Below, one piece after another: positions 19,181-22,002 of a DNA stretch of 64,000 nucleotides (its first letter is position 1; each line of letters starts with the position of its first letter). The DNA is from Haliotis rufescens. Its lineage: Eukaryota. A model generated the notes under the pieces. It was not told the origin of the DNA and did not search any database. It worked only from the letters and a program-made list of their open reading frames with translations. The translations under genes were made by a program, and so were the position numbers. The DNA is taken from assembly GCF_023055435.1 (NCBI RefSeq), contig NW_025964353.1:682001-746000 (forward strand). Reading direction: 5' to 3'.

Positions 19181-20575
19181 TTGTCATGACGTTTCAGATG
19201 CATCCTACCTTTTTAACTGGCCATGGATTTAATGAGTTACATTAACAATTACATGTCGCACGTACACACGCATATCATGTGCAACTGTCAGTCAGACCCC
19301 TGTCCTATCCAGTGTTGCGGGGTAACTCTCATGTTCTGTCGTCACGTGTGACTCAATCTTGCTGAATCGGCTATTTCAAAAGGTTAAGACTTGTTGTATA
19401 CCATAACAAATTATCGACGTTTCTGCTATTCATGAATCCACGTCACTACAGCAGTGAACAATGTTATCAGGTCTTATCTTAATCTTGACTTCCAATAAGG
19501 AACAACAAAGTATTACATACTGGGACATACACGACGCCGAGACGGATAGGGCGGCTGTATACAGTGGAACAGTAGGTATATTGTGTTCTCGCATAGAAGG
19601 CCTTTGCGGTCTGGTGTAAATGTTTAACACCATGCGTACCCCCCCTCCGTACCTTCTTATATAGCGGACTAAGAACGTGGATGCTCTTGACACTGACCCA
19701 ACAGGATGGTGGAACTACAAGGCATTACATACAATGGATGGTAGTCATTGGGTCACACCTGTTACGCATATATTACCAAAGCGATGGTTGATAAACACAG
19801 GTGATGCTGATTGAGTGCAGGCTGTGCCTGGTAAACTCAGACAACATTAATCAACATATTATTGACAGTACATTCGTAAAGACTGATCGACGATGAATAG
19901 TTATGACCTCGCCATATGACTGCAGATTGTATAATATGCGGGGATTTAAACAGATTGGACGGGAAGACCTGTTTGCTGTGAGTGATACTCTTCATAGAAA
20001 TTGTAAATAATAGTCACGTGCTTGGGGGCGAGAGATTACAATCGATAACATATTCCTTGATTCCAACTGATACCATGGACATTTAACTTTTATCTATGTA
20101 CATTACTTCTACATGAAGTATATTTTTCCAATTTCAATCACTTTCACTAAGGAAAAACATTTTTAATGTGAACTATTGATAATCATTTCTTATTCGAAAA
20201 TTCGTATATTTCATTCATTACTAAGTTTCGTCAGTTGGTCACTATGATCTGCTGAGAGTATTATATTCTCTAAATCAAGAACTATCTATTTCCTATGTCC
20301 CCTATTTTAATTCATATCCATTTTCGTCAATTATTTTTTTAAAGTGATTTTCAATGTTTTATTTATTTGTACGTCATTAACAATTGGTACTCTCCCGATC
20401 GAACCAAACTGAGAAAGTAATTTTTATTGACTGACTGCACCAGACGTTCAAGGACACTAAATAGTAGGATCCCTCGTCCAGGTCTGTACTTACTTCTGGA
20501 CTGTACTAGATCATCACATTTTGATAAAATAGTGCATTAATACATTATGTGACACCTTACAGATAAACATCAACC

Positions 20576-20908
20576 ATGGATGAGAAGGTACTGAAGAAGA
20601 TGGATGAGCTGGAGCGATATGAGAAGGTAGTAAAGCACCTTGGAGAACGGTACGACCAATCGAAGGGGGTGTCGCCCCTCTTCCGGTATGGGCAGCTCAA
20701 ATCTATGATCAAGGCAGCCATTTTGAAAATGTCGAAAGATAACGAAGATGACAGTGACGGCGAGGATCAGGAAACATCCAAGCCAGGTACATGTAACACT
20801 CGCAGTGGAAGCTGTGCGGCTTCCTTGAAACCAAAGTATTTTCCTCAGATACACAATCTACCCAGACTATGGTCCATTCACCTGTGTGCTTCGTTCTTCT
20901 TGGGCTAC

Positions 20909-20964
<56 letters not shown>

Positions 20965-22002
20965 GGGGAGAGTTGTTGTTTAACGTCGACTTGGTCTGTA
21001 AATTTTTTTATCAACGCAATTGGGATACGATGCCAATCATTAACCAATAGTATAGAATCGAATCGGTAACACATTTCTTGATTACAACGTATACCATAGA
21101 CATTTCATTTTTATTCATGGACATTACCTCTTCTTACAGGAAGTATATTATCCAAATTTATTCACTTTCACCAAAGAAATACCTTTTTTCTGTGAACTAT
21201 TGTTCGTTTCGTTTGTTTGTTTCCTATCACCATAGACGTCACGTCATGTTAGATGAACATAAATGTTCTTCAGAAACGAAACACAATTTAAATACAGATG
21301 TTCATAAGTTCAGTTGTAAAATACATGGTGTAGTAATCTATATATACAAAGTATCCTGACGTTGTATATCGTGCATAACACCCGGTCTGCTTCTCGTGGA
21401 AGAAAATAGCAAAACATATTTATCAGTGAACCGATGAAATGTGAATCGAGGTTTGGAAGTCACATCTAGATCCCAACATTTCAATTTCCAATCTGTTCTA
21501 GTGAGTTGGCGAGTTAAGATTTTGTAGTCACATCGGCAATATTTCAGCCATATCGTGCTAAATCAAATTATTCAGGAATAATGCATAAATATAAACTATA
21601 AAACCTGTGGACAAAGGACAATAAAAGAACTACAGTATTACAGCTATAAAAATTAAACTGGTAAGTGACCTTAAAATTGTGACTATTCAGAACAATATGT
21701 CATAAAAATTGGCTAGAGATCACCAGCAACCAAAGTTGAGCCACCATACAAGGGACCCAATCTGTTCTAAAACTATGTTTGAATGCTAACGTTTCGTTTC
21801 AGATCTGAAACAAATGTCCAACACACGTCTGACTGAAGACTTCATACAGAAGAGGCGCCAGGTTAAGGCTATCCTGAAGTTGAAGGACGAGTACGCTGCA
21901 TCCAAGAGACTCGGTGCCTTTGTGAGGTACGGGGAGCTCAAGTCGATGATCAAACGCGTTACCAGGGATACACAGGGTGGGCCAGGAACCGCTGGGAGGT
22001 GA
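20576..22002 (+). CDS. Unrecognised small protein (136 aa) with two RYG[QE]LKSMIK modules; coding exons 20576-20786 and 21803-22002
   Basis: ACCATGG Kozak start, preceded by acceptor ttacag (20557-20562) and an in-frame TAA. Donor CAG|GTACAT at 20786 (phase 1). Branch-like GCTAAC plus tttcgtttcAG at 21785-21802 joins in frame (G|AT CTG AAA CAA ATG). The two exons encode homologous modules K-x4-L-x3-Y-x2-SK-x6-RYG[QE]LKSMIK. Confidence 0.75.
20911..20961. repeat. (AG)n microsatellite
   Basis: Direct reading. Other microsatellites: (GT)n 38955-39011, (CA)n(GA)n 63508-63570, poly-G 27356-27375, poly-C 53231-53255. Confidence 0.95.

Follow-up and report, generated by a model that had tools for sequence, protein, structure and literature searches.

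HR1 repeats (PF02185) are tandem hairpins that serve as effector domains of small GTPases of the Rho type, and centrosomin motif 1 (CM1) has the core EN[FW].L[KR]. The SPX domain (PF03105) is a sensor of inositol pyrophosphates; in the SPX domain of Vtc4, Y22 and K26 are reported to bind InsP6 (PMC9911596), and the phosphate-binding cluster is described as Y22/K26/K133 (PMC9911596; bioRxiv 10.1101/2019.12.13.875393).

The named genes closest to the one described here are Drosophila CG31191, C. elegans F59B8.1, Anopheles AGAP001581 and Schistosoma Smp_158180, all of them uncharacterized entries with core forms of ~200-260 aa. There is also a PANTHER family, which we take to be named after AGAP001581-PA. 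An identifier search, which a renamed gene would escape, found no functional paper on CG31191; one paper tabulates the gene among predicted miRNA targets (PMC7309417), and another describes it as the host of an intronic snoRNA candidate (PMC2825236). For F59B8.1, and for the identifiers of the mollusc, flatworm and nematode members, the main texts of the open-access papers searched gave no match. The F59B8 mentioned in PMC4221712 is F59B8.2, not F59B8.1, and the papers matched by P90899 are, by their titles and the starts of their abstracts, unrelated.

The window, by which we mean the whole 64-kb stretch of Haliotis rufescens DNA that was analysed, carries a relative of these genes, LOC124114010. 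Its 136-aa product is RefSeq XP_046330482.1 (P0007 in our protein set), an uncharacterized protein with at least four accessions, which it matches at 100% over both residues 1-70, from the first coding exon, and residues 71-136. LOC124114010 is thus a real gene, previously annotated in RefSeq, and the mollusc origin suggested by the first-pass annotation, which had been made from the letters alone, is borne out. The features of the locus are as follows.

20040..20178, no strand: non-coding stretch of ~140 bp, 80% identical to 21061-21202 in the intron
20563..20786, + strand: first coding exon; acceptor AG at 20561-20562; contigs start at 20562/20563 in three runs
20582..20746, + strand: module 1, a predicted helical hairpin; decamer at 20684-20713
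Module 1 consensus residues, by conservation, + strand: L22, Y26, S29, K30, R37, Y38, L41, K42, M44, I45, K46
20738..20773, + strand: acidic linker, residues 55-66, predicted disordered
20787..21802, + strand: phase-1 GT..AG intron of 1,016 nt, whose position and phase are shared by all 5 abalone genes
21803..22002, + strand: coding part of the last exon, which holds module 2; stop TGA at 22000-22002
Module 2 consensus residues, + strand: L97, Y101, S104, K105, R112, Y113, L116, K117, M119, I120, K121; decamer at 21925-21954
22003..23190, + strand: 3′ UTR of ~1.2 kb, end approximate; contigs end at 23186, 23175 and 23132

Evidence for splicing came from Logan contigs of 4 of the 24 runs listed, whose RNA nature is presumed, none being on record as RNA. 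The junction was seen in all four contig sets, from four studies (reported as 20783>21800, with 1,016 nt skipped and GT..AG at a cut of +3), which confirms the proposal that a phase-1 intron at 20787-21802 joins two open reading frames into a single product of 136 aa. The first coding exon begins with 13 nt of 5′ UTR, including an in-frame TAA (20564-20566), before the ATG at 20576 (context ACCATGG); the coding sequence then comprises 211 nt up to 20786 (phase 1) and 21803-22002, giving 411 nt, or 136 aa and a stop. Within the intron are (AG)25 at 20911-20961 and, as a candidate branch point by sequence, GCTAAC at 21785-21790. AATAAA signals lie in and after the 3′ UTR at 23092, 23204 and 23217, and contig coverage is consistent with an mRNA that starts its mapped part at 20563 and ends at about 23130-23190. 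A retrocopy was not seen, since the genome assembly holds a single 100% locus for each exon. At the upstream end, contigs from three runs end at the acceptor (20562/20563) or diverge from the genome there, and one of them has 29 extra unaligned bases beyond it (record 1,556, aligned to 1,527). Because the contigs depart from the genome at this point, and because an in-frame TAA precedes the ATG, a non-coding 5′ exon is implied and the earlier description of the gene as two-exon has to be extended.

Upstream of LOC124114010, and transcribed away from it on the - strand, lie exons of a short-chain dehydrogenase (SDR; adh_short) at 5554-5970 and ~10580-10725. It is possible that the two genes share a promoter region, if the 5′ exon lies beyond the intervening satellite. 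This satellite is the first of a pair of arrays (12753-18739 and 30833-34602) and has a 64-bp unit in ~93 copies with 94% match, while the second has a 17-bp C-rich unit in ~229 copies. A broken retroelement remnant, presumably of Ty3/gypsy type by its motifs, occupies ~23700-25800 (RVT_1 match at 24946-25296), and an exon of dynactin p62 (DCTN4) is found at 40265-40549 on the + strand.

The gene had been called an orphan, a label that no longer applies, as there are four paralogous genes in the same genome and homologues across protostomes. The four paralogs are also two-module genes and lie on contig C13, three at 15.44-15.49 Mb and one at 18.76 Mb; searches of the same genome with more distant members gave no additional paralog. 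In all five abalone genes a phase-1 intron lies immediately 5′ of module 2. Module 1 likewise follows a phase-1 acceptor in the four paralogs, whereas LOC124114010 starts within the exon. A lone module-2 exon on the - strand of C13 (L027:9752-9952, ~18.775 Mb) lacks 11 residues, including the Y-x2-S-K turn; a module-1 exon was not found in the 40 kb examined around it, and this damaged copy is likely a pseudogene. Elsewhere, at L042:1640-1800 (C594), an exon end and its donor are apparently tandemly duplicated beside an SPX-encoding exon.

Orthologues of LOC124114010 in at least three Haliotis species retain all 22 consensus sites of the two modules. The H. cracherodii orthologue differs at 2 of 136 sites. 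That of H. rubra (P0010) has 87% identity, and none of its 16 differences over 127 sites falls on the 22 consensus sites (P=0.038). The run contigs show at least five coding differences; of the five listed, three are non-synonymous, and none is at a consensus site. H. rufescens and H. cracherodii share the nine C-terminal residues (21973-21999), which the H. rubra orthologue (127 aa) lacks.

We assembled a family set by taking 412 proteins, keeping the 208 of 120-300 aa that matched the profile over its full length, and reducing these to 86 members under 72% identity, a filter that favours full-length proteins. Against this set LOC124114010 stands out by its long branch, its identity of at most 36% to any non-orthologue and the shortest N-terminus of the 86. 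Its module 2 is shortened by 11 residues, as it is in two of the abalone paralogs (75/86 members have the long form), and a common origin with these two was neither shown nor rejected (p-AU 0.25). The tree splits into a core and a fast-evolving half, with LOC124150872 (on C13) grouped with conserved chiton, bivalve and limpet genes on the fly and worm side; support for this split is weak, at no more than 81%. On such comparisons LOC124114010 is best regarded as a derived, shortened, fast-evolving paralog, and it is LOC124150872, not LOC124114010, that is probably orthologous to fly CG31191 and worm F59B8.1.

The two-module plan is nearly constant in the family, with two modules in 83 of the 86 members, one in two members and a split third in one. 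Each module has the consensus L-x3-Y-x2-S-K-x6-R-Y-x2-L-K-x-M-I-K preceded by heptads, and the LOC124114010 protein has all 11 consensus residues in both. An alignment of its module 1 with its module 2 scored 68, which none of 5,000 shuffles reached (maximum 48), and so the duplicated module recognised in the first-pass annotation is real. The decamers of the two modules, RYG[QE]LKSMIK, are identical at nine of ten residues, and five of those nine are encoded by synonymous codons that differ, as had been pointed out. The further argument, that the motif has been kept by constraint since an old duplication, stands as regards both constraint and an ancient duplication; however, the match itself is mostly family consensus, to which 7/10 positions conform. 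An identity of 9/10 between decamers is the highest of the range and is reached by 2/74 proteins (mode 6), and in the 22 columns before the decamer the two modules share an ordinary 5/22 (mode 5). In a tree of 42 mollusc modules (66 columns), module 1 and module 2 rows separate with 2 changes, versus 14.4 when shuffled (0/500). This separation, together with the difference in 5/9 codons, led us to reject recent gene conversion between the modules. Since insects, nematodes and molluscs all have two modules, the sequences suggest that the duplication is ancient and predates the divergence of these three groups. The non-coding 140-bp stretch is also duplicated, with one copy upstream of each module exon, but this pair has diverged too little to be as old as the ancient duplication of the modules.

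Isoforms with a single module had been considered possible, a suggestion that finds no support: the Met of module 2 is the usual start of the module and has C at -3, no skipping joint occurs among the joints listed in the four runs, and two modules are the rule in the members, selected though these were for full length. Database entries with a single module (e.g. P0017 and P0020) were rejected as isoforms, being exon translations that run into introns.

Across 171 modules, K/R occupies four sites in 92-100% (-7, 0, +5 and +9) and an aromatic or hydrophobic residue is found at -11 and +1 in 98-99%. These figures lean high and are partly circular, as the motif had served to seed the module profile. 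No core site is acidic in >50% of the modules, and thus no conserved internal salt-bridge partner is evident. The proteins are mostly basic (pI >8.5 in 82/86), and none has a hydrophobic segment, the highest 17-residue hydropathy among the 86 being 1.35. The linker of the LOC124114010 protein, with a net charge of -0.44 per residue versus a median of -0.01, is the most acidic inter-module stretch of the 83 two-module members, and its acidity is also present in the H. rubra orthologue.

Word-seeded searches found family members in gastropods, a chiton and bivalves. A 21-row mollusc profile, run against 1.84 billion representatives, matched 375 clusters (50% identity) at E<=1e-3 and 171 at 1e-10. 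We inspected the best 150 of the 375 and looked up 15 of these by name; eight proved to be named (Drosophila mojavensis, Plutella, Allacma, Strongyloides, Mesorhabditis, Schistosoma, Bugula and Owenia) and seven nameless. The members with names belong to molluscs, flatworms, nematodes, hexapods, an annelid and a bryozoan, with no deuterostome or cnidarian among the named matches, most matches being nameless. Among the cluster members are C. elegans F59B8.1 and the fly gene, the latter through a D. busckii entry that bears the name CG31191. In the other direction, an insect/nematode profile matched 303 proteins at E<=1e-10 among 7,994 candidates (the insects among the best 120 of these being mostly 72-88% identical to the query), and a six-row insect/nematode profile, built without molluscs, gave the LOC124114010 protein 39.1 bits (E=6e-5). 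None of its decoys, 86 of them reversed and 1,720 shuffled, exceeded 10.5 bits. The homology is therefore reciprocal, the mollusc profile finding insects and nematodes and the insect/nematode profile finding the abalone protein. Profile-profile alignment (hhalign) of the two gave a probability of 99.1 over 171 columns. By these sequence comparisons LOC124114010 is a member of an unnamed, protostome-wide, two-module family.

The first-pass annotation did not recognise the family, and neither Pfam nor NCBIfam offers a fitting name. Single LOC124114010 exons gave nothing above the Pfam cut-off, 21 members gave weak coiled-coil rows only in NCBIfam, and for the worm homologues Pfam had nothing at E<=1. 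Four profiles searched against PDB sequences found nothing at E<=1e-3; in the ESM Atlas, exon 1 had no usable match and the chiton member only rows <=0.80. Automatic names on members are mutually discordant (SPX domain, Daxx, angiomotin, GED, CHAD). Dipteran members (P0152, P0254, P0282, P0284) are often annotated with low-complexity N-terminal extensions, at 450-770 aa, and these extensions attract misleading names such as angiomotin or couch potato-like. P0032 (Saccostrea echinata XP_061181076.1) has, by eye, an N-terminal RING-like cysteine pattern in addition to the family domain, a fusion that is possibly an annotation read-through.

AlphaFold2 models were built from the 21-row alignment. 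The chiton member was predicted as two hairpins and a middle helix (pLDDT 82.8, pTM 0.69) and the LOC124114010 protein, at moderate confidence (pLDDT 69.4, pTM 0.55), as two hairpins, with helices at 3-29 and 34-57 in module 1 and at 77-104 and 109-128 in module 2, and pLDDT <50 at residues 56-75. For both models, alignments to four-helix bundles extend over the full length (Z<=8.0, rmsd 3-11), but all of these matches are generic. Given the pTM values and these full-length alignments, the two hairpins probably come together as a single pseudo-symmetric four-helix bundle, on which the conserved residues would form one surface patch per hairpin. Foldseek gave no match at E<=0.001 in the PDB (both models) or in BFVD (chiton model), and in VIA-align the best Z was 7.9-8.0, with SPX and uS15 absent from the best 50 rows listed. 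The structural check proposed in the first-pass annotation thus returned two helical hairpins and no specific fold match.

What has been conserved from fly to abalone is the tip of the hairpin, with its two tyrosines and four basic residues. The presence of these basic residues without a conserved acidic partner points to an external, polyanionic ligand. We therefore tentatively favour, at somewhat less than an even chance, the reading that LOC124114010 is the abalone member of an unnamed protostome-wide two-hairpin family whose bundle patches bind a phosphorylated polyanion, the protein acting as a bivalent adaptor or sensor in the cytosol. On this proposal the Tyr/Lys/Arg patch of each hairpin would grip the polyanion, giving two sites per chain, and a two-site protein of this kind could serve as a small basic bivalent adaptor or sensor. 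The ligand would most likely be an inositol-polyphosphate or phosphoinositide head group, or else a phosphorylated or acidic peptide, and the location would be cytosolic. In LOC124114010 the acidic linker may fold back on the basic patch as an internal competitor. A more specific version, which we consider doubtful, is that the family senses inositol polyphosphates or phosphoinositides throughout the protostomes and has been overlooked in this role; a minimal Tyr-x3-Lys phosphate clamp, convergent with SPX, would have been duplicated to give one two-site bundle, strongly conserved in insects and nematodes, expanded in molluscs and made self-shutting in the abalone paralog by the poly-acidic linker.

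The basic and aromatic patches would, from their sequence, fit RNA or acidic proteins equally well, and three other functions have to be weighed. The family might bind nucleic acid, most likely RNA, its two basic, Tyr-bearing hairpins clamping a duplex or structured RNA. The high pI of nearly all members and the conserved K/R/Y sites are as such a binder would have them, and there is a weak match between the family profile and the uS15 C-terminal helix, with the spacing L-x3-Y-x3-K-x6-(K/R)Y (E=0.021; E=0.0079). However, this match does not extend to the second helix (LK.MIK), has a best-stretch E of 0.03-0.69 and ranks amid generic coiled coils (IF1, C/EBP), and hhalign of the family with a 42-residue abalone uS15 exon gave a probability of 0.3; we think RNA binding unlikely. 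Less probable again is a coiled-coil scaffold of the cytoskeleton, centrosome or cilium, in which long N-terminal helices would oligomerise while the basic patches bound acidic tubulin or actin. Hydrophobic sites do follow a 3/4 heptad spacing from -29 to -8, Cnn_1N is the commonest weak Pfam row (8/86 at E<=0.05, best E=1.2e-5), and Cep57_MT_bd, TACC_C and a flagellar coiled coil also give weak rows, but all these rows are confined to the generic zipper part and the CM1-type core is found in 0/86. Moreover, the long helices are largely lost from the LOC124114010 protein and from two paralogs, all of which keep the tip motif, so that the tip, not the rod, is the conserved part.

Further down the scale we place a protein-recognition module resembling tandem HR1 hairpins, whose basic residues would read the acidic surface of a single folded partner. 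The AlphaFold2 models do contain antiparallel hairpins in tandem, each of 50-70 residues, and the high identity among the insect proteins, within the matches listed, is expected of a protein with a fixed partner; against this, no HR1 row appears among the Pfam matches listed (best 25 families), and the neighbouring genes, SDR and dynactin p62, suggest no partner. Finally, LOC124114010 could be an abalone-specific orphan, or a decaying or pseudogenic duplicate with a chance repeat. Its long branch and low identity to non-orthologues, as well as its shortened N-terminus and helix, would be in keeping with decay, but the gene is intact and spliced, the Haliotis orthologues keep their consensus sites, and the homology with insect and nematode proteins is reciprocal, so that we regard this as very improbable.

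Returning to a phosphorylated polyanion as the favoured ligand, its closest described counterpart is the SPX domain, which like the LOC124114010 protein has Y-x3-K on a basic amphipathic helix. The best Pfam row of the LOC124114010 protein is in fact SPX, over profile positions 18-37, though with E=0.0088 and 16.6 bits (cut-off 27.8) it covers just 20 of 340 positions; read without gaps, this weak 20-residue match aligns Y113 and K117 with profile positions 22 and 26, and the third residue of the phosphate-binding cluster, a lysine, has no counterpart assigned. SPX is not among the 25 Pfam families most matched by the 86 members, and the lysine surface cluster motif and MKF-type start of SPX, searched as patterns, occur in 0/86. 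A worm homologue bears the automatic name 'SPX domain-containing protein', yet Pfam gives that protein no SPX match. The family may work like SPX, as a functional analogy at most, without being an SPX member.

In the C-terminal helix of uS15 (PF00312; eukaryotic S13), L, Y, K and (K/R)Y are spaced about a proline turn as they are in the family, at a borderline E=0.008-0.02 over ~45-55 positions, but uS15 has no second helix and is not duplicated. Centrosomin motif 1 (PF07989) and leucine zippers (bZIP, IF1) share a heptad zipper and an E-N start with full-length members; they leave the hairpin tip unmatched, and the zipper part is largely gone from the LOC124114010 protein, which has no Pfam row for centrosomin motif 1 (one is precomputed on P0074). 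Up-down four-helix bundles (FRB, FAT and the designed single-chain 2L4HC2_23) resemble the models in overall arrangement at Z 6-8, but with identities of 1-19%, none above background, they are uninformative on function. The structural kind of the family is ordinary, and its function is what we infer from the conserved tip.

The true homologues are CG31191, F59B8.1, AGAP001581 and Smp_158180, which have the same two-module plan and consensus. They differ from the LOC124114010 protein in their full-length helices and longer middle, the abalone protein having 136 aa, an acidic linker and a module 2 that is 11 residues shorter. The finding of note is the family rather than LOC124114010: it is a domain without a Pfam name, spread across protostome phyla and present in both the fly and the worm models, where members carry discordant automatic names, including an SPX name without Pfam support in this analysis. 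As the consensus gives the exact residues to mutate, the function of the family is directly testable in these homologues.
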